Source: an uncultured Rikenellaceae bacterium
GTDB taxonomy: Bacteria; Bacteroidota; Bacteroidia; Bacteroidales; VadinHA17
Direction of reading: 5' to 3'
DNA: 64,000 nt
Assembly: GCA_963818525.1 (NCBI GenBank)
Contig: CAWFSO010000001.1
Span: 85,443-149,442, forward strand
Shown one piece after another: positions 6,208 to 15,507 of this stretch (positions are counted from its first letter, which is position 1; each line of letters opens with the position of its first letter). The notes beneath the pieces were generated by a model that was not told the origin of the DNA, did not search any database, and was given only the letters and a program-made list of their open reading frames with translations. The position numbers and the translations under genes were made by a program.

Positions 6208-6762
6208 ATGAAGATCCTGATCACCTTTGCCGGGAGTGCCGGGCCTTCAGCCGCTGTGGCTGAACGGATTGCCAGGGTGATGACAGGACTGGGTGCTCAG
6301 GTGGCGCTTCTTCCCATGAATGGTGTCTCCACTGTCAAGGGTTTTTCGGCCGTCATTGCCGGCAGCATGGGGCAGGGTGGCGGCTGGGTTCCGGAGGCGA
6401 TGGAGTTCGTCCGCAGGAACCAGGGACTTCTGAACAAGAAGCCGTTTGCCCTCTTCACCGTTATCCCTTCTCTGGCGTCGGAGAAAGGCGCTGAGTCGCG
6501 CATGGTGATCATGCAGTATACGGCTCATGTGCGGGGGATGGTTCACCCCGTGAGTGAGGGATTTTTCAGTGGCGATATTGAAAAGAAGAAGGAGGATCAT
6601 CCCGGCGACCGGTCGAAGTTCAAGCTGAGGATACTCCTTGGGCTGTTGAAGGAGGGTGATCACCGCAGCCATGCGGAGATAGAGACCTGGGCAGTGAAGC
6701 TCCATGAGAAGCTCATGAAGGTTGCCGGTAACGGGGCGAAGAGCCCGGTGCACGGACTTTAG
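6208..6762 (+). CDS. Flavodoxin-domain protein (HemG/Flavodoxin_5-like, divergent)
   Basis: MKILITFAGSAGPSAAVAERIA, VIAGS, EGDHRSHAEIETWA resemble the Flavodoxin_5 pattern; FMN-binding loop degenerate. Confidence 0.65.
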   Translation: MKILITFAGSAGPSAAVAERIARVMTGLGAQVALLPMNGVSTVKGFSAVIAGSMGQGGGWVPEAMEFVRRNQGLLNKKPFALFTVIPSLASEKGAESRMVIMQYTAHVRGMVHPVSEGFFSGDIEKKKEDHPGDRSKFKLRILLGLLKEGDHRSHAEIETWAVKLHEKLMKVAGNGAKSPVHGL

Positions 6763-7528: not shown

Positions 7529-7559
7529 TTGACATTTTAAAAAAACCGTTTTAAATTTG
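7529..7559 (+). promoter_or_regulatory. Putative Bacteroidota promoter for the peptide-cluster operon
   Basis: TTG (7529-7531), 20 nt spacer, TAAATTTG (7552-7559), upstream of ATG 7587. Confidence 0.55.
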
Positions 7560-7586: not shown

Positions 7587-7835
7587 ATGTCGTTGATCAA
7601 GTACATTGCAAGATTGCAACGGATGGATTCTCTTATTGCCATGAAGGCAACCGGTCCTCCTGAAGAATTCGCTTACAAGATGAACCTGAGCCGGAGTACT
7701 CTCTTTGAAACACTTCAGGAGATGAAAGGCATGGGTGTTGACATCAGGTACTCAAACCTTAGAGAGTCATACTATTACGCTGATGCCAGACGGATTGTAA
7801 TTAAGGTTGAGAAAGCTGGAGAGGTGGGTTCATAA
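7587..7835 (+). CDS. Small HTH DNA-binding protein of the Bacteroidota family often heading peptide/RiPP export clusters
   Basis: RLQRMDSLIAMKATGPPEEFAYKMNLSRSTLFETLQEMKGMGVDIRYS...SYYY; HTH pattern A-x-K-x-x-L-S-R-S-T-L. Confidence 0.75.
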   Translation: MSLIKYIARLQRMDSLIAMKATGPPEEFAYKMNLSRSTLFETLQEMKGMGVDIRYSNLRESYYYADARRIVIKVEKAGEVGS

Positions 7836-7916
7836 CCCGTTTCAATAAAAATGAGCCTGGCATTTTACTCAGTTCACTTGGTCATGGACCCAATTAAAAA
7901 GAAAAACAGTACTGTC

Positions 7917-8573
7917 ATGATTGAAAACTACTTGTCAATAAAAAGATGGAAGCTCTTTTCAGGCGTTGTATTTCTAAATCTGCTGATTATTTTTTTATCT
8001 CAAACGACTTTAATTAATGAGATTGTCTTCTTCAATACTTACAGTGAACAGCTAACGTACGACAGGTCTATGGAACTTTTTGCCAGGATGGAATCTTTTG
8101 CCTGGGTAAGCTATGTTTTTTTACCGGTTATGCTATTACTCAAATTCTTGGCTTTAAGTCTGCTAATTTACATTGGTGTATTTTTTAGCGACCTGCATAA
8201 AGAGATCACTCTTAGCAAAATCTTCACAGTTGTAATTGCCTGTGAATGTGTTTTTGTTGTAGCCTCACTCATGAAGTTGCTGTGGTTTATGTTCTTTGCC
8301 GGCAACTATACTCTTGATGATCTTAGTTTCTTTTATCCGCTCTCGTTAATTAACCTGTTCCGACGATCAGAGGTCGCATCGTATTGGATCTACCCGCTTC
8401 AGACAGTCAATATTTTTCAGTTTGCGTATATTTTAATGCTTGCTCTGGGATTATCAAAAGTTGGTTCAGTGAAAAGAGCTGTAGCAGACAAAGTCATATT
8501 GACCACTTATGTACCTGCTATAGCCGTCTGGATTGCTTTGATAATGTTTTTAACTATTGACACTGAGGTATGA
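7917..8573 (+). CDS. Five-TM (Yip1-like) membrane protein associated with bacteriocin-type clusters
   Basis: About five hydrophobic segments; FYPLSLINLF and YPLQTVNIFQFAY motifs; ATGA coupling to the next gene; start could be 7851, 7884 or 7917. Confidence 0.7.
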   Translation: MIENYLSIKRWKLFSGVVFLNLLIIFLSQTTLINEIVFFNTYSEQLTYDRSMELFARMESFAWVSYVFLPVMLLLKFLALSLLIYIGVFFSDLHKEITLSKIFTVVIACECVFVVASLMKLLWFMFFAGNYTLDDLSFFYPLSLINLFRRSEVASYWIYPLQTVNIFQFAYILMLALGLSKVGSVKRAVADKVILTTYVPAIAVWIALIMFLTIDTEV

Positions 8574-9094
8574 AGAAGCGAATAGGTAAATTAATTGTTG
8601 GTGCAACAACAGCCCTTATGGTTATTCTGATTGTTGGTACCCTGTTCAGAAAAGCAGAGGCGGAGGCGGCAGCTGAAAGAATCAGGTCTTTGCCGGATCT
8701 TGTTCTTGCTGATATCAATGGTAATGTTTTCAGGACTGATCAGATAACCTCCGGGCCGTTATTGATTACATATTTTCATCCGGAATGTGATCACTGCAGG
8801 TATGAAATAGCTTCGATCTTCAGCAGTGATTTGCTTGATAATGATTTGAGAATAATATTGGTGAGTTACGCAGACATCAGTCAGATAAAATTATTTATGG
8901 AGCAGTTTGATACGAGGGACTATCCCGTATTGAATGTACTTCATGATCCGGACCTTTTCTTTAGAGAGGTTTTCGGGACTGATGTTATCCCTTCAAACTT
9001 TATTTATAATAAGGATTTACAGTTGATGAAAGCCTTCCGGGGGGAGACTACTACAGAGACGATACTTAAATACCTGCAAAGCAGTGATAAATAG
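8570..9094 (+). CDS. Membrane-anchored thioredoxin-fold thiol-disulfide oxidoreductase (TlpA/redoxin-like)
   Basis: N-terminal TM anchor, YFHPECDHC (CxxC), cis-Pro motif VIPSNFIY. Confidence 0.85.
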   Translation: MKKRIGKLIVGATTALMVILIVGTLFRKAEAEAAAERIRSLPDLVLADINGNVFRTDQITSGPLLITYFHPECDHCRYEIASIFSSDLLDNDLRIILVSYADISQIKLFMEQFDTRDYPVLNVLHDPDLFFREVFGTDVIPSNFIYNKDLQLMKAFRGETTTETILKYLQSSDK

Positions 9095-11252
9095 TAAAAG
9101 GATAAAGGAACTATCATTACTTCAGCATGATTCTACTGATTGCGGAGCTGCGTGTCTTGCATCAGTGATCAGATACTTTGGAGGAAACTCAGGAATTGAT
9201 CAGGTTCGAAGGTTGAGCGGCACAACACAGTCAGGAACATCAATGCTTGGTTTGTATCAGGCAGCTTTGGGCTGTGGAATGGAGGCTACCGGCTACGAAG
9301 CCTCCATTGCAGATATTATTGCATTTGCAGGGGTCCTGATTCTACACGTGACCCCGGAGAAGGGATATGAACATTATATTGTCAGCTACGGGTATTCAGG
9401 TGACAGATTCATTATATGGGATCCCGCATCAGGTCTCTCCCTGAAGACAACATCAGAGCTTGATCAGATATGGCTGAGTCACAAATGTCTAGCAGTCAGT
9501 CCGGGCAAGGATTTCCAGCTTGAGGATAAATCCAGAAAAGATAAAAGGGAGTGGATAATAGATACCATAAAACCCGAGAAGGAACTGCTTCTTGCAAGTG
9601 TGTTTGTGGGAATTCTGATTTCGGTTCTTGGGGTAGTTATGGCAGTGTTTACACAAAAACTGCTTGACAGAATATTGCCCTCGGGTGATATTAAATTACT
9701 GATTGTCTCAGCAGTACTTGTATTTATGCTTCTTATTGTTAGAGTATTTCTTACTTCAATACGGCAATACATTTTGTTATCACAGGGCAAAACTTACAAT
9801 ATCCGGATTGTTGACGGATTTTACAGTTCATTGCTCGGATTGCCCAAGCCATTCTTTGACACCAGAAAAACTGGCGACATGGTAGCTCGTTTAAACGATA
9901 CGATGCGTATCCAGCGAGTTATTTCAGACATAGTCAGTACATACATTATAGATATTCTGATACTGCTGATAACAGTGTTCATGATTTTCATCTATTCTAC
10001 TGTGGCTGGAGTTTTATCTCTGGTGGCAATCCCCTTATTCTTCCTTCTGGTTTACAGATGGAACAATCCAATAATTAAGTCACAGCAGGATCTGATGGCA
10101 GGTTATGCCTTGAATGAAAGTAATTTCATTAATACTCTCAGGGGAATAACGGAGATTAAAAGCATGAACTGGCAAGGAATTTATGGAAACAGGAACAAAT
10201 CCATATTCACTTTTTTTCAGGAAAGAGCCTTTTCACTGGGTAAGATAAAGATAAAGCTTGGGATGCTGACAAACCTGGCAGGTACGCTTTATCTGATGGG
10301 ATTACTGGTCTACACTTCGCTTGAGGTAATGGGGGCACGGATGACCCAGGGCGAACTGATGGCAATCATTTCACTTAGTTCAACCCTGCTGCCGTCTGTC
10401 ATGAACCTGGCTCTTGTCTCCATTCCTCTAAGCGAGGCCAAAGTAGCTATCGAAAGGATGTTTGAATTCACTCAGTTAAAGCCAGAGACTGACGGATCGG
10501 ACGATCAGTGCGGTATCCCGGTAATCACAAGGGTTGCTCTAAATGGTATTTCATTTCGATTCCCGGGACAGAAACTCTTCCTTTCGGATGTTGGCCTGGA
10601 AGTTGAAAAGGGGCACATCGCAGCTCTCGTTGGGGAGTCAGGTTCAGGGAAAAGTACCTTGGTAAATATTCTAATGCGTTTTTATCATCCTGAGTCTGGA
10701 TCCATCCTGGTTAACAATTTTACAGACAGCCACGGTATTCCGGTTGAAAGGTGGCGTAAATCGATAGGTCTGATCCCGCAGGAGATGCATATGTTTAATG
10801 GAACGGTGCTCGAAAATATAATACCTGATGCTGATGACTCAAATCTGAAGAGGCTCGTCAGAATAACTGCAGATTATGGACTTGAACCATTTGTAAAAAA
10901 TCTTCCTCTGGGTTTTGCCACGCTTGCCGGGGAAGATGGTGTTAACCTTTCCGGAGGGCAAAAACAGGTTATTGCATTTATGAGGGCCTTGGTGAATGAA
11001 CCTGACATTCTACTTATTGATGAGGGAACCTCCGGGATGGACAGAGACACGGAAGCCATTATTCTAAATATTCTAACGCGGATTAAAGATACTGTTGGTG
11101 TATTGCTGGTGACCCACAGGATTAACCTGGTTAAGAAGCTATGTGACAGGATTTATCTTCTTGAAGGAAGAACCATCACTGCTGCAGGCTCCCATAATGA
11201 ACTTATTTCAGGAGATAATCTTTACAGAAGGTTTTGGGATGATTTTAATTAG
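9084..11252 (+). CDS. Peptidase-containing ABC transporter (C39 peptidase + TMD + NBD), bacteriocin processing/export
   Basis: QHDSTDCGAACL (catalytic Cys), EHYIV (His), WDPA (Asp); Walker A GESGSGKST, signature LSGGQ, Walker B ILLIDE, H-loop VTHR. Confidence 0.95.
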   Translation: MINSKRIKELSLLQHDSTDCGAACLASVIRYFGGNSGIDQVRRLSGTTQSGTSMLGLYQAALGCGMEATGYEASIADIIAFAGVLILHVTPEKGYEHYIVSYGYSGDRFIIWDPASGLSLKTTSELDQIWLSHKCLAVSPGKDFQLEDKSRKDKREWIIDTIKPEKELLLASVFVGILISVLGVVMAVFTQKLLDRILPSGDIKLLIVSAVLVFMLLIVRVFLTSIRQYILLSQGKTYNIRIVDGFYSSLLGLPKPFFDTRKTGDMVARLNDTMRIQRVISDIVSTYIIDILILLITVFMIFIYSTVAGVLSLVAIPLFFLLVYRWNNPIIKSQQDLMAGYALNESNFINTLRGITEIKSMNWQGIYGNRNKSIFTFFQERAFSLGKIKIKLGMLTNLAGTLYLMGLLVYTSLEVMGARMTQGELMAIISLSSTLLPSVMNLALVSIPLSEAKVAIERMFEFTQLKPETDGSDDQCGIPVITRVALNGISFRFPGQKLFLSDVGLEVEKGHIAALVGESGSGKSTLVNILMRFYHPESGSILVNNFTDSHGIPVERWRKSIGLIPQEMHMFNGTVLENIIPDADDSNLKRLVRITADYGLEPFVKNLPLGFATLAGEDGVNLSGGQKQVIAFMRALVNEPDILLIDEGTSGMDRDTEAIILNILTRIKDTVGVLLVTHRINLVKKLCDRIYLLEGRTITAAGSHNELISGDNLYRRFWDDFN

Positions 11253-11420
11253 AATAAATAAGGGAGCAAAAGTGACAAAACAATAAAAAAGATAGAGAAT
11301 CCGGTATTGTCGGACTGCTTTGTTTTTAATTTGATATTGCAGAGGGATTAAAATACTCTCCTCTGCAGGTGAATGCCGAAAAGCCTGAAGAGAGTAGGTG
11401 AAAGAAAAATATGTCTCTCT

Positions 11421-11624
11421 ATGAAAAAATTAAGATTTGAGCAAATGGAGACTGTGAGTGGTGGACTAAAGTTCACAACTCTTAGTGGAATTTTATGTGG
11501 TTCCGCACTTGTGCTTGCATGCACTGGTGTACTTGCACCTTTAGCGGCCGCACCTGCTATTGGTTGTGCAACAACCCTTGCGGCCAAGGAGTATTGGGAA
11601 AGTCAGGGAATAGAAGTCGATTAA
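11421..11624 (+). CDS. Double-glycine leader peptide precursor 1 (bacteriocin-like, 67 aa)
   Basis: Leader MKKLRFEQMETVSGG (15 aa); 52-aa hydrophobic core with 3 Cys; directly after the C39 transporter. Confidence 0.85.
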   Translation: MKKLRFEQMETVSGGLKFTTLSGILCGSALVLACTGVLAPLAAAPAIGCATTLAAKEYWESQGIEVD

Positions 11625-11643
11625 AACCAAAAACAATTAGATT

Positions 11644-11832
11644 ATGAAACAGATACTAACATATGAAGATATGAGTGCTACACGGGGTGGTAACTTTTGG
11701 GATGGATTTTGTGTGGTGGTAGGTGTTGCTAACGTTCTTTCTCCAGTATTAGCATTTACAGGGGTAGGGTATGCAATTGTCAAAACCGCTGGTGTTGGTT
11801 GTTTAATTTATAAAGCAGCTACACTAGATTAG
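11644..11832 (+). CDS. Double-glycine leader peptide precursor 2 (bacteriocin-like, 62 aa)
   Basis: Leader MKQILTYEDMSATRGG (16 aa); 46-aa hydrophobic core NFWDGFC...GVGCLIYKAATLD with 2 Cys. Confidence 0.85.
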   Translation: MKQILTYEDMSATRGGNFWDGFCVVVGVANVLSPVLAFTGVGYAIVKTAGVGCLIYKAATLD

Positions 11833-11996
11833 AATTAAGGGAGATTTGATGTTCATTGTTAAGAGTATGGGTAAAAGAGTTAAATTTGTTGTTGCCAAGA
11901 TGTATTTAACATTATGAGCGCTTCAATATGCCATCCGGAACTCATAAATCACCATGGATGCTCGTATAGATTCACATCTCCTAAATGTAATAAATC

Positions 11997-12185
11997 ATGA
12001 ATAAAATCACTACAATTGCATTTGTCGCTTTAATTATCATTGCACTCTACCTTCTTTATAAACTGATCTTTGTTGAAGAATTGAGTAGGTTTGATAATAT
12101 TTTGTTTATTATTCTATTAGCAGGAGGTATTATAAATTCTTATATAATTATTTCCAGCAGAAAGAAAAAACCCCTGAAGGAATAA
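11997..12185 (+). CDS. Small two-TM membrane protein, candidate immunity protein
   Basis: 62 aa, two hydrophobic helices, basic C-terminus SRKKKPLKE; directly downstream of the precursors. Confidence 0.65.
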   Translation: MNKITTIAFVALIIIALYLLYKLIFVEELSRFDNILFIILLAGGIINSYIIISSRKKKPLKE

Positions 12186-12220
12186 TCAAATCTTACACAA
12201 AATCAGTTTTTGTTTGTCTT

Positions 12221-12250
12221 ATACCTCGAGGTCATTCTCGGGGTATTTTG
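12221..12250 (+). terminator. Putative intrinsic terminator closing the peptide cluster
   Basis: ATACCTCGAG-gtcatt-CTCGGGGTAT 10-bp stem (one G:U) followed by TTTG. Confidence 0.5.
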
Positions 12251-12350: not shown

Positions 12351-13400
12351 ATGAAAAACACTTTCCCATCTGCTTTCGAAGACTTATATATTAAAGTAAA
12401 AGAAATCCTGGAATCAGCCAGGAATAGGTCTTACAGAGCTGTTAACTTTGAGATGGTTCAAGCTTACTGGAATATAGGGCGGACAATTATTGAAGAAGAG
12501 CAGGAAGGCAGGGAGCGGGCAGAGTATGGGAAGTATCTTTTGGCGAACTTATCTATTCGGCTTACGGCAGACTATGGTAAAGGTTTTGATGACAGAAACC
12601 TTGCATATATGAGGCAGTTTTACCGGGCCTTTCCAAATATGAACGCAGTGCGTTCAGAATTATCCTGGACACATTATAGGATACTCATGCGGGTTGAGGA
12701 AGAGCCCGCAAGGGAGTTTTACCTTCAGGAATGTGTGGAAGGAAACTGGAGCACACGACAGTTGGAGAGACAAATTAACAGTCTCTATTTTGAACGAATA
12801 CTGATGAGCAGCAAAGAAAGCCGTTCACTAGTAAAAAATGAGGCTGATGGTAAAAAGGAACCTATGCATCCCGGACAATTAATAAAGGATCCTTATGTAC
12901 TCGAATTCCTGAACCTAAATCCCAATATGAATTTTTACGAGAAGGAAATAGAACAAGCTCTAATCGATAGACTGCAAGGGTTCCTTTTGGAACTTGGTAA
13001 AGGTTTTTCATTTGTAAGCAGACAATACAGGATATCAGCTGATACGAAGCATTTTTATGTTGACCTGGTATTTTACAATTATATCCTGAAATGCTTTTTG
13101 CTTATTGATCTGAAAACCGGCGAGCTGACGCATGAGGATATCGGGCAGATGGATTTTTATGTCAGGTACTTCGAGGATCAGGAAAGACAGGAAACAGATA
13201 ATCCGACAATTGGACTGATACTCTGTGCTAAAAAGGATAAGACAATAGTAAAATACAGTTTGTTAAATGAAAGCCAACAAATCTTTGCTTCAAAATACAA
13301 ACTCTACATGCCAAGCATCAAGGAACTGCAGGATGAGATAACCCGCGAGAGGCAAGTGATAGAACAATTAAAAGGACTCTGCAAAAGTCGGAACTCTTAG
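12351..13400 (+). CDS. YhcG/DUF1016 PD-(D/E)XK nuclease-domain protein
   Basis: YWNIG, LSWTHY, WSTRQLERQI, IKDPYVLEFL, DLVFY, IDLK, DIGQM, NPTIGLILC. Confidence 0.93.
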   Translation: MKNTFPSAFEDLYIKVKEILESARNRSYRAVNFEMVQAYWNIGRTIIEEEQEGRERAEYGKYLLANLSIRLTADYGKGFDDRNLAYMRQFYRAFPNMNAVRSELSWTHYRILMRVEEEPAREFYLQECVEGNWSTRQLERQINSLYFERILMSSKESRSLVKNEADGKKEPMHPGQLIKDPYVLEFLNLNPNMNFYEKEIEQALIDRLQGFLLELGKGFSFVSRQYRISADTKHFYVDLVFYNYILKCFLLIDLKTGELTHEDIGQMDFYVRYFEDQERQETDNPTIGLILCAKKDKTIVKYSLLNESQQIFASKYKLYMPSIKELQDEITRERQVIEQLKGLCKSRNS

Positions 13401-13524: not shown

Positions 13525-13786
13525 ATGAAAGAACTAAAACTGAACCTCATTCTAAGAATCCTAGTGGAACTGCCCTTGTCGGGCTTTTATGTCCTCTTTC
13601 ACTATTGATTGGGCCAGTATCCTTGCTTACATTGGGTATCCTTTATCTTCCATCGGTTTTGCTCTTTTTTCAAAATATTTCTTAACTCAAAAAAAACGAA
13701 ATGAAAACAAAAATCACCAAAAGAGATCTGACCGCATTCATTCTGGGAGTGGTTGTTATGATTCTAATCAGCTTTTTCTCTGACTT
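13525..13786 (+). pseudogene. Probable frameshifted small membrane-protein gene
   Basis: ATG 13525 MKELKLNLILRIL stops at 13608; hydrophobic coding-like sequence continues in other frames (GTALVG..., ...FTIDWASILAYIGYPLSSIGFALFSKYFLTQKK). Confidence 0.3.
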
Positions 13787-13847
13787 TAAAAACAACGTTC
13801 AGAGTTTCAAGGATGGCTTCAATGAGGCATATCATAACGACAGATAG
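13701..13847 (+). CDS. 48-aa single-TM small protein (not in ORF track)
   Basis: MKTKITKRDLTAFILGVVVMILISFFSDFKNNVQSFKDGFNEAYHNDR*; A-rich Bacteroidota-type translation start; basic N-terminus, TM, then FKDGF amphipathic motif. Confidence 0.65.
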   Translation: MKTKITKRDLTAFILGVVVMILISFFSDFKNNVQSFKDGFNEAYHNDR

Positions 13848-14019
13848 AATAATTTGATCCAGGAAACCAGGTCATACAAATGAGCTTTGGGTTAATGTTT
13901 GAACAAGACATTGATCTAAAGTGCATACATATAATGGCAAAAAGGAACTGATTGTCAATGCGTACTGTCAACTATTACATTCGACATTGAAGTATTAGTA
14001 TTATTTTGATCAGTTGCGA

Positions 14020-14049
14020 TTGAGAAATATTCCGGATTTAGTAAATTTG
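14020..14049 (+). promoter_or_regulatory. Putative promoter for the small membrane gene string
   Basis: TTG (14020-14022), 19 nt spacer, TAAATTTG (14042-14049). Confidence 0.45.
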
Positions 14050-14124
14050 ATAGCAATAGGTCAATGACATCAGACAACTGTTCCTGTAACTTCCAGAAAG
14101 TCAAATTTATCTATTTCTGCAATT

Positions 14125-14595
14125 ATGAAAAAGTTTGAAATCATCCTGATAATCGGAGCCGTCATCGGATTCCTGATGGTGCTATTCAACATCCCGCTTA
14201 ACTCGGTGGTTGTGTCATTGTTTTTTGTGGTGCTGGGTTTGCTCTATTTTTACCTGGGCTTTGCGCTTTTTAACGGTATCAGACTGCGGAACATATTTAA
14301 AGCTGATTCCTATAATGGGCTTGGAACGTGGAGAATACTTCTTGCTGTCGGGACAGGCATGGCACTTTCAGAACTCACCATCGGATTTATGTTCACCATA
14401 CTGAACTATCCGATGGCGAAATCCTTAATAATCTTCGGAATAGTTCTTACCGTGATAATGATTATCCTGGCTCTGATCAGGAACACAAAGGAGAAGAGTC
14501 AGTTCTACAGAAGCATAATTTTAAGGTGCCTGGTCTTTGTAATTATTGCTGTCGTACTCCTGCTGATTCCCGGACAGGTTTTCGAAAAGCCCTGA
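14125..14595 (+). CDS. Hypothetical multi-pass membrane protein (156 aa)
   Basis: About five hydrophobic segments; LGFALFNGIRLRNIFK motif. Confidence 0.7.
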   Translation: MKKFEIILIIGAVIGFLMVLFNIPLNSVVVSLFFVVLGLLYFYLGFALFNGIRLRNIFKADSYNGLGTWRILLAVGTGMALSELTIGFMFTILNYPMAKSLIIFGIVLTVIMIILALIRNTKEKSQFYRSIILRCLVFVIIAVVLLLIPGQVFEKP

Positions 14596-14598
14596 GAC

Positions 14599-14793
14599 AT
14601 GAATGAAAAGAACATGCAGTTGATCCTGAAACTAGGACTCATTGGCTGTTTGATCTGCCTCACAGGGGCCATCTTCCAACTCACACAATCCTCGCCTGGC
14701 TCGACAGGCCGAACGGTTGCAATACTGCTTTGCCTGACAGCGGCGGTAGAAAGCCTGAGTTTTCTTTTACAGCTCAGACAGAAAAGACCATAA
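14599..14793 (+). CDS. Small two-TM hypothetical protein (64 aa)
   Basis: Two hydrophobic helices, basic tail RQKRP; 3 nt after the upstream stop. Confidence 0.55.
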   Translation: MNEKNMQLILKLGLIGCLICLTGAIFQLTQSSPGSTGRTVAILLCLTAAVESLSFLLQLRQKRP

Positions 14794-14814
14794 CCCGGGA
14801 AACATAATTACTTT

Positions 14815-15018
14815 ATGAAAAACAAGCTCGTACGTTTCATCGTCTATTTCGTTGCCTTGACAGCATCACTCTACCTTGCCTACACCCTGTTGGATATGAA
14901 CAAGGAAAACGCTGGTGAAAATGCCAATGAGAACCTGCTGCTTGCGATTCTGGTCGGAGCCGGGACTTCTGCAACTCTGGTATTCCTTCCCAGCCTCTTC
15001 AGGAAGCCAAAAGGATGA
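14815..15018 (+). CDS. Small two-TM hypothetical protein (67 aa)
   Basis: MKNKLVRF..., two TM helices, basic tail RKPKG. Confidence 0.6.
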   Translation: MKNKLVRFIVYFVALTASLYLAYTLLDMNKENAGENANENLLLAILVGAGTSATLVFLPSLFRKPKG

Positions 15019-15054
15019 TGCTTAAGACAGGCAGAGTAATGCTACAGTGTGCTG

Positions 15055-15507
15055 TTATTTTTCTTCTACAGTAATCCCAAAAGATTGTAAGGTTCCGATA
15101 AGTTCATTAAGGTAGTACTTCCTGAAATGGTCCTCATCGCGGTAGTCAAGAACTACCTTGCGTCTCTGTGAGTTCTTAAGATGTAAAGTAAGATTCAGAT
15201 AAGAAGTAAAATCCTCCCTGATCACCGCCCTTTCAACCTGCCGGATGTCAAGACTCTTGTCTGTATTTGTTCTTGAACCGATGATTAACCCAAAAACACC
15301 AAGTGCGAGGACTGCTAATCCCAGTATAATTGTTTTACCATCAGGGTTGACTAAATACCTGCCAATGGCATATAATGCGCCTATAATGTAAAACGCAGCA
15401 ATAACCATATTCACATATTTGTGCCACTTGAAAATGCCATCGGTAATAATAATCTGGTTGTCCGAGAAGTTGATCTCACCTTTGTAAACTGTAAATCTTG
15501 TTTTCAT
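15055..15507 (-). CDS. Hypothetical two-TM protein with C-terminal PH-like domain
   Basis: Two TM helices then LDIRQVERAVIRE...LTLHLKNSQRRKVVL beta pattern. Confidence 0.65.
   Translation of the reverse strand: MKTRFTVYKGEINFSDNQIIITDGIFKWHKYVNMVIAAFYIIGALYAIGRYLVNPDGKTIILGLAVLALGVFGLIIGSRTNTDKSLDIRQVERAVIREDFTSYLNLTLHLKNSQRRKVVLDYRDEDHFRKYYLNELIGTLQSFGITVEEK

Follow-up and report, generated by a model that had tools for sequence, protein, structure and literature searches.

Bacteroidetocins are, according to a 2025 review (PMC11901371), the only characterised peptide bacteriocins of Bacteroidota, with 19 bacteroidetocin-like peptides counted and only four, polar ones, tested. Their loci encode a five-transmembrane (5-TM) protein, a peptide with a double-glycine (GG) leader, a thiol oxidoreductase and an ABC transporter carrying a peptidase of the double-glycine type (Coyne 2019; PMC6671954). 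In that account activity depends on all three of transmembrane (TM) protein, oxidoreductase and peptide, four genes are enough in E. coli, and no immunity protein was found at the loci. Bacteroidetocins A and B have 42 amino acids (aa), are somewhat basic and carry four similarly placed Cys and 12-13 hydrophobic residues (PMC6671954), and the reported target of bacteroidetocin A is BamA, reached from outside (PMC6671954; Matano et al. 2021, PMC8546649). A cassette of this kind, with two hydrophobic cargo peptides here called pepA and pepB, lies at positions 7587-12250 of a 64,000-nucleotide (nt) stretch from an uncultured Rikenellaceae bacterium (GenBank assembly GCA_963818525.1, contig CAWFSO010000001.1, positions 85,443-149,442, forward strand); this whole stretch is called the window. 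The reading favoured here, with moderate confidence, is that this is a locus for the production and export of two paired, unmodified class II bacteriocin peptides.

The four-part machinery logic, the GG leader of 15-16 aa and the presence of at least two Cys per peptide, as published for bacteroidetocins (proposed class IIf), are all found at this locus. A reading made earlier from the DNA letters alone (the sequence-only reading) had recognised bacteroidetocin-style export machinery, and this is borne out: the 5-TM protein (TM5), the oxidoreductase (Trx) and the peptidase-containing ABC transporter (PCAT) of the window are homologous to those of cassettes beside polar 4-Cys peptides of 41-45 aa (loci L031 and L096), and in a PCAT tree the window falls in an all-hydrophobic clade (100/100), whose sister group (93/92) holds polar-cargo cassettes. 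Orthology of TM5 to the bacteroidetocin TM protein is drawn through these cassettes and not through the published proteins themselves. The differences lie in the cargo and its surroundings. Two hydrophobic cores of 52 and 46 aa, with three and two Cys, stand here against the 4-Cys peptides A and B, the peptides follow PCAT, and a conserved two-TM gene, a helix-turn-helix (HTH) gene and a leader with the DUF805b motif are added. The cores are set apart by the published description, a comparison that does not extend to the sequences of the 19 listed bacteroidetocin-like peptides or to whether any of them is hydrophobic (PMC6671954 Fig. 8b, Supplementary Data 2).

Adjacent genes for two GG peptides, followed by one gene for a small membrane protein, resemble the arrangement in class IIb bacteriocins (lactococcin G, plantaricin EF/JK), the peptides of which are likewise hydrophobic and helical, rich in small-xxx-small motifs and exported by PCATs. 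Class IIb peptides are generally Cys-free. The present system differs from them in its diderm producer, dedicated oxidoreductase, conserved Cys pairs and extra 5-TM protein, and no sequence similarity to class IIb peptides was found in Pfam or NCBIfam at E<=10. Class IIa microcins (MccV, MccL, MccN/PDI) offer another parallel, being Gram-negative, unmodified, Gly/Ala-rich and hydrophobic, with GG leaders of ~15 aa, 0-2 disulfides, export by a PCAT and immunity proteins of the small TM kind (for context, PMC12219008). They use a PCAT with a membrane-fusion protein (MFP) and TolC, and the host Dsb system. In contrast, no MFP or outer-membrane protein family was found here among the 10 open reading frames (ORFs) scanned against Pfam and NCBIfam, DsbA, DsbB and VKOR have no match in the window's genome (97% complete), and the locus has its own oxidoreductase and 5-TM protein. 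The same scan, which covered neither 13589-15507 (except 14125-14595) nor a 184-aa ORF at 6208-6762, gave no tailoring-enzyme, HlyD or TolC family; the absence of all three from the locus, as claimed in the sequence-only reading, holds within the ORFs scanned. New in this locus are the conserved pepA leader holding an inverted repeat and DUF805b, and a host genome without a match to DsbA, DsbB or VKOR.

The export cassette and its two peptides

The seven ORFs of the cassette are intact and co-directional (+ strand), and the complete list given in the sequence-only reading is present: HTH protein, five-TM protein, CxxC thioredoxin, C39 ABC transporter, two GG precursors, two-TM gene (TM2) and terminator. 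The description of these genes as a tightly coupled run holds for TM5, Trx and PCAT, which overlap by 4 nt (TM5/Trx) and 11 nt (Trx/PCAT), and fails at the gaps of 168 nt between PCAT and pepA and 164 nt between pepB and TM2; pepA and pepB are separated by 19 nt.

The precursor of pepA (11421-11624, + strand) consists of a 15-aa GG leader and a 52-aa hydrophobic core and has 13 homologues with 72-88% identity. Its start had been placed at an upstream ATG (11373) and is corrected to 11421, because 67 aa is the length of 9 of the 13 homologues and the alignments of 11 of them run from the Met at that position. The earlier account of the Cys in the core also needed correction: pepA has three, with Cys26 and Cys49 of the precursor invariant and Cys34 nearly so, and the core carries an invariant/conserved polar tail motif, YWESQG. 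The precursor of pepB (11644-11832, + strand), with a 16-aa GG leader and a 46-aa hydrophobic core, has 17 homologues with 65-94% identity, and its core contains two invariant Cys, Cys23 and Cys53. Neither precursor belongs to a Pfam or NCBIfam family, and for pepA nothing is matched even at E<=10. Both families have an invariant Gly directly ahead of the core; the Gly preceding it is nearly invariant in pepA and present in 16 of 18 pepB rows. Precursor residues 37-38, where both peptides have a (C/F)TGV motif, form the midpoint of the invariant Cys pair in each. For pepB an AF2 model (pLDDT 78) shows helices at 18-31/33-39 and 41-60 that are interrupted at residue 40, and one disulfide would, on this model, staple a helical hairpin near its open end. 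Grand average of hydropathy (GRAVY) is +0.89 for the pepA core and +1.17 for the pepB core, against -0.41 and -0.62 for the 4-Cys peptides, which agrees with the earlier statement that these cores are unlike the polar bacteroidetocins.

pepA and pepB were considered as paralogues; a single BLASTP comparison aligns them with 32% identity over 59 residues (E 5e-4), and the idea was rejected at an hhalign probability of 4%. Prediction of a complex between the two cores with alignments gave a score of 0.01 and a mark of 0.32, which weighs neither for nor against binding. The pepB profile picks out a distant homologue in another taxonomic order, the second peptide of a pair (L067), with 31 bits, E 1e-5 for a nominal million sequences.

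PCAT (9084-11252, + strand, 722 aa) combines a C39 peptidase with an ABC exporter made up of a six-helix transmembrane domain and a nucleotide-binding domain, and matches Pfam Peptidase_C39 (5.4e-23), ABC_membrane (6.4e-31) and ABC_tran (3.5e-29). It matches NCBIfam TIGR01193 at 1.8e-106, with a score of 357, below the model's curated cut-off of 523.85. Residues 9-719 align with the solved PCAT1 structure 4RY2 (2.4e-103), including the Cys of DCGAAC and a downstream His, the PCAT1 counterparts of which we take to be the catalytic residues of the C39 domain.

Trx (8570-9094, + strand, 174 aa) is a membrane-anchored periplasmic oxidoreductase of the thioredoxin fold, with an N-terminal anchor, a CDHC motif and a weak likeness to ResA (NCBIfam, 6.7e-9). 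The motif C-x-[H/F/Y]-C is kept in 15/15 cassette homologues, and oxidising sites of the DsbA/PDI type typically have a His or aromatic residue ahead of their second Cys. An oxidoreductase dedicated to the locus would suit this host, since its genome has no DsbA, DsbB or VKOR match; for Bacteroides the same point is made in Coyne 2019 (PMC6671954).

TM5 (ORF 7851-8573, + strand) probably starts at 7917, because its homologues, of ~215 aa, align from residue ~23. It has no Pfam or NCBIfam family, and its own family comprises 795 clusters at E<=1e-3 among 1.84 billion representatives. Its AF2 model has a pLDDT of 96, and fold searches for solved relatives returned noise-level matches only (Foldseek pdb best E 5; VIA wide best Z 7.0). 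Yip1 (PF04893) is not matched by TM5 of the window, is matched by 2 of 80 members of the TM5 family (best 1.5e-4) and appears on 15-17% of the members of the Atlas neighbours of TM5, so a relation to Yip1 is only a lead. A role as DsbB/VKOR-like re-oxidiser was considered and rejected: the TM5 family has no conserved Cys, several members have no Cys at all, and TM5 is therefore not a thiol redox partner.

Conservation of the locus and its proposed function

Related loci were collected by a pepB-alignment scan of one genome per species, which gave four (L003-L006), and by a pepA-alignment scan of metagenomes, which gave three further contigs (L034, L035, L036), two of them (L035 and L036) the same sequence at 99.9% identity. 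The cassette is found in these 6 other distinct loci, one of which (L034) is cut by a contig end. The order PCAT, pepA, pepB is kept in all 6, and the full order HTH-TM5-Trx-PCAT-pepA-pepB-TM2 wherever the contig allows; the precursor ORFs beside homologous transporters, for which the sequence-only reading had proposed a synteny check, are thus conserved. In 7/7 distinct loci holding either peptide, the window included, pepB directly follows pepA. Three of the 6 other loci adjoin mutL and a flavodoxin-like gene, as the window does. The setting in gut Bacteroidales that had been suggested is not supported by the record titles, which name Rikenellaceae/Bacteroidales metagenome-assembled genomes (MAGs; all four loci of the pepB scan) and one activated-sludge metagenome contig.

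Pairwise ratios of nonsynonymous to synonymous substitution (dN/dS) are 0.08-0.17 for pepA, 0.10-0.33 for pepB, 0.23-0.43 for TM2 and 0.04-0.07 for the HTH gene, with dS from 0.34 to saturation. The small ORFs are genes under purifying selection, because these ratios are well below 1.

The closest relative is L006, in which the flanking MutL, flavodoxin-like and YhcG proteins are intact and 97-98% identical to those of the window (MutL 97.5%). In L006 (6200-10560) many 1-nt indels break TM5, Trx and PCAT into ORFs no longer than 147 aa; pepB is also split and TM2 interrupted, and only pepA of the two peptide genes remains intact. Over its first ~640 nt the PCAT gene has, judged by eye from the alignment, ~80% DNA identity. 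This fragmentation is either a real decay of an accessory trait or a local assembly error. By analogy with this broken copy, the cassette could be an inactive relic in the window's genome too, but this is very improbable: all seven ORFs of the window are intact, the catalytic motifs are kept, and dN/dS between intact copies is well below 1. A search of sequencing runs gave no RNA holder, and the share was small (<=0.19) in each DNA holder.

TM2 (11997-12185, + strand) is a 62-aa protein with two hydrophobic spans and no Pfam or NCBIfam family. A homologue follows pepB in L003 (79% identity), L004 (66%), L005 (63%) and L035 (53%), and TM2 is a candidate immunity protein. In L036 a ~93-bp deletion takes out part of TM2, and ORFs resembling CPBP/Rce1, apparently split in two, follow TM2 in both L035 (4365-5562) and L036 (5272-6517) (PF02517, 4.2e-8). 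The CPBP/Rce1 family is linked to class II bacteriocin immunity.

It is also conceivable, though unlikely, that pepA and pepB are two independent one-peptide bacteriocins using one exporter, with TM2 protecting against one or both. Cassettes that carry several unrelated peptides are common (for example L028, L067 and L089), and the relatedness of pepA and pepB is not demonstrable. Against this, adjacency and order of the two genes are strict in 7/7 loci, the gap between them is 19 nt, the single conserved leader stands ahead of pepA only, two peptide genes have a single TM2 gene beside them, and pairs of the A/B type recur in distant lineages.

The following course may be proposed. pepA and pepB would be made with double-glycine leaders of 15 and 16 residues, the C39 domain of PCAT would cut after GG, and the cores of 52 and 46 residues would be pumped across the inner membrane. 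The membrane-anchored CxxC oxidoreductase would then close one disulfide per peptide, from the N-proximal to the C-proximal Cys, and, as the partners are symmetric around the conserved (C/F)TGV turn, a stapled helical hairpin would result. TM5 would be an obligatory helper other than a thiol redox partner; by analogy with bacteroidetocins, peptide that is active and released would depend on it. The released hydrophobic hairpins may insert into membranes of related bacteria, possibly jointly as a two-peptide toxin, while TM2 would protect the producer, and the HTH protein and the pepA leader with its inverted repeat and DUF805b would control expression. The genes present, the families to which PCAT and Trx belong, and the conservation, synteny and selection seen are direct observations; the cleavage site, disulfide pattern, membrane activity, toxicity, synergy, immunity, regulation and route through the outer membrane are inferred, as is the export to the periplasm first that the sequence-only reading had proposed.

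Several points weigh against a bacteriocin pair. ResA/TlpA-like proteins are usually reductants, and the oxidising role of Trx is an assumption. The third, near-invariant Cys34 leaves the disulfide pattern of pepA not unique, and homology between pepA and pepB is not demonstrable at the hhalign probability given above. A match of the cores to a characterised bacteriocin family, an outcome named in the sequence-only reading as counting against it, was looked for in Pfam and NCBIfam at E<=10 and none was found; the same search leaves pepA and pepB with no bacteriocin family to support their assignment, and Foldseek on the pepB model stayed at noise level (best E 5.1). Characterised bacteroidetocins have, according to PMC6671954, no immunity protein and kill their own producers, which makes immunity by TM2 unprecedented in this machinery family. 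Release from a diderm cell is unexplained, as no membrane-fusion or outer-membrane component was found among the ORFs scanned. In L006, finally, the nearest relative, the machinery genes are shattered by frameshifts, and the system is dispensable there.

Leader region and neighbouring genes

The ~125 nt before pepA (conserved leader/promoter region, 11296-11420, + strand) contain blocks conserved in 6 loci, although synonymous sites in pepA and the HTH gene are near saturation. An inverted repeat, TGCAG..CTGCAGG, lies at 11338-11369, and Rfam RF02914 (DUF805b) is matched at 11366-11400 with 37.0 bits against a gathering cut-off of 35.6 (E 5.9e-8), the match ending 20 nt ahead of the pepA ATG. 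DUF805b also stands before pepA in L003, L004, L005, L006 and L035 and before the GG peptides of L022 and L033, with 39.4-44.8 bits, and is absent at gathering score from 20 other cassette loci scanned; the Rfam scan excluded loci L081-L097. The motif itself is attributed to Weinberg et al. 2017 (PMC5737381).

The family is named for DUF805 genes, whereas in this cassette and 7 more the gene that follows it is an unannotated one for a GG peptide. DUF805b is above cut-off in 81 of 151 sampled Bacteroidales genomes including that of the window, often in several copies, sometimes a few hundred nt apart. Among the 30 best DUF805b loci (L101-L130) an ORF starts 18-27 nt past the motif in 29, a spacing shared by the 20 nt found here, and the ORFs have mostly signal-peptide-like N-termini, one being DUF805-like and ~5, by eye, small and of GG type. 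DUF805b looks like a general leader or promoter-proximal signal and not one specific to bacteriocins, since it is widespread and stands mostly before ORFs resembling signal-peptide genes, and its fixed spacing suggests a promoter-proximal or 5'-UTR signal. The window's genome has two further sub-threshold copies, before a lipoprotein-like gene and a signal-peptide gene. No description of DUF805b upstream of GG peptides was found in the literature searched; the main text of PMC5737381 does not discuss the motif, and its supplementary text may bear on it.

The winged-HTH-like protein (7587-7835, + strand, 82 aa), a putative regulator encoded first in the cassette, gives weak matches to HTH_11 (E 0.07) and to the BirA N-terminal domain (E 0.003). 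Its identity is 86-94% over 66-79 aligned residues in L003-L006, 62% in L022 and ~38% in L026 and L029. A TAAATTTG box at 7552, before the HTH gene, is a weak match to the Bacteroidetes -7 box, the motif of which is taken here to be TAnnTTTG. A scan for this box gave 3 matches in 5.1 kb (7552, 11881, 12086), about the number expected by chance on a rough estimate made without a shuffle control. At its end the cassette is closed by an intrinsic-terminator-like hairpin and U run (12221-12250, + strand): the hairpin at 12221-12246 has an 11-bp stem followed by UUUU, with -17.7 kcal/mol, z -4.1 and 0/200 shuffles as good. A sigma-70/terminator consensus scan was uninformative and missed this hairpin.

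The region of 7-16 kb is a low-GC islet, with 38-44% GC against 50.2% genome-wide. A gene for a YhcG/DUF1016 PDDEXK nuclease (12351-13400; YhcG_C 3.1e-59, DUF1016_N 6.5e-48) occupies the interval from TM2 to the next conserved gene. Among the related loci only the window and L006 carry it, so that it appears to have been inserted later. A 156-aa multi-TM ORF (14125-14595) is kept beside the cassette in L003, L005 and L006, with 54-71% identity in L003 and L005, and is followed, still in the low-GC stretch, by two small hydrophobic ORFs (14599-14793 and 14815-15018). The ORFs at 14125-15018 may belong to the system, for example as additional immunity genes. A second PCAT of the same genome (contig C2, 873791-875977; Peptidase_C39 1.5e-37) has a different neighbourhood, with neither TM5 nor oxidoreductase. 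A genome-wide regex scan flagged no GG peptide near it and no further credible GG-leader peptide in the genome.

These surroundings bear on an alternative which is improbable, more so than that of two independent bacteriocins: that the peptides are exported signals, or membrane-resident peptides acting on the producer, for instance in envelope or stress physiology, and not weapons. Gram-positive GG peptides exported by PCATs include pheromones (PMC7018657), the cassette keeps a fixed chromosomal site by core genes in several related genomes, and DUF805b in the 30 loci examined stands mostly ahead of ordinary secreted-protein genes. Yet no sensor kinase or response-regulator family was found among the 10 ORFs scanned, so that a signalling role, as far as the family scan goes, appears without support. 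Peptides of 46-52 very hydrophobic residues are unlike known pheromones, an immunity function would suit the small TM or CPBP-type genes next to the peptides, and both the low GC of the islet and the decay of the L006 copy are in keeping with an accessory trait for competition. The reading as a bacteriocin pair remains the preferred one.

Cargo of the cassette across Bacteroidota

TM5 homologues are present in 13 of the 400 further Bacteroidales genomes sampled and, by profile search, in 35 of 400 further Bacteroidota genomes. Twelve loci were fetched from the order sample, and in these TM5 adjoins Trx and/or PCAT wherever the contig allows. The phylum sample, with 31 loci, has PCAT beside TM5 in 18 and TM5 alone in 13. 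Twelve of these 13 come from one family (f157), in which TM5 is matched in 12/12 genomes, and a stand-alone branch of TM5 exists, with some other, possibly housekeeping role, as this distribution indicates; loci without an adjoining PCAT or oxidoreductase are L069, L078-L080, L082-L086, L090-L092 and L094. A tblastn search of TM5 against plasmids gave one record, a cassette on a Flammeovirga pectinis plasmid (L033).

The cargo was surveyed in 31 TM5 cassette loci, the window included, as small ORFs with a GG leader and at least two Cys, the Cys requirement and the leader pattern being the analyst's own filters. The survey gave 47 GG peptides in 28 loci. Hydrophobic peptides (GRAVY >=0.4) make up 39 of the 47 and are spread over 22 loci; 37 of them also have a Gly plus Ala fraction of at least 0.2, and 35 have exactly two Cys. 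The first Cys lies <=12 residues from the N-terminus of the core in 37/39, and the last <=12 residues from its C-terminus, again in 37/39. Polar or amphipathic peptides alone are found in 6 loci, and two of these peptides have 4 Cys and 41-45 aa (L031, L096), fitting the published description of bacteroidetocins. The cassette is a general platform, and hydrophobic, Cys-bracketed peptides are its commonest cargo in this sample. The cargo of the window had been called unfamiliar, but it is not exceptional, being of the same type as these 39 peptides.

Adjacent pairs with a gap of <=60 nt occur in 7 of the 28 loci: the window, L067, L081, L088, L089, L093 and, if an upstream start is used, L071. 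Larger sets are found in L028, with three peptides, and in L067 and L089, with four each. In the PCAT tree (28 rows; L006 omitted as broken, L023, L026, L034 and L075 as truncated or absent, L036 as a duplicate of L035, and L067, L076, L096 and L097 for want of an ORF hit of at least 600 aa by the filter) cargo types are interspersed, changing 5 times, and 64 of 500 shuffles give an equally good result.

Other cassettes with hydrophobic cargo have small multi-TM ORFs right after the peptides (L028, L029), and in L028 each of the three peptides has its own small TM ORF behind it. In L022-L024 an ABC ATPase with multi-TM or permease partners stands by the peptides, with DUF5687 in L024. Cassettes with polar cargo tend to have larger, secreted-looking neighbours in place of small TM ORFs, such as a CarboxypepD_reg-like protein (L031, 8706-9737) and a GLPGLI protein (L033, 10497-11405), as well as an ORF in L025 (8907-10547). 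There are hints that the accessory logic may differ between polar and hydrophobic cargo classes.

No description of hydrophobic, Cys-bracketed cargo of this cassette was found in the literature searched, on which Fig. 8b and Supplementary Data 2 of PMC6671954 and the tables of PMC12648112 may bear. The latter gives 4,494 predicted class II sequences in Bacteroidota (PMC12648112), and the hydrophobic peptides may already be catalogued among them.

A broader proposal, which is tentative and rather doubtful at present, is that the cassette of 5-TM protein, oxidoreductase and PCAT is mainly a factory for hydrophobic helical-hairpin peptides closed end to end by a disulfide ('pseudo-cyclic'), including conserved A/B pairs that would work as membrane-active two-peptide bacteriocins and have small TM proteins for immunity. 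If true, diderms would possess in these peptides a counterpart to the class IIb and circular bacteriocins, the polar, BamA-binding bacteroidetocins published so far would be a minority cargo, and TM5, with a confidently predicted fold and no solved relative, would be a factor handling insoluble peptides between two membranes.

In the present sample the bacteroidetocin export cassette mostly carries other cargo, which is hydrophobic, Cys-bracketed, often paired and often beside small membrane proteins. The locus gives a handle on the role of the essential 5-TM protein, on disulfide formation in a periplasm without Dsb or VKOR, and on what the widespread orphan motif DUF805b signals. If the peptides are active, Bacteroidota of the source environments would hold a large reservoir of peptides that target membranes, with Bacteroidota also as their probable targets.

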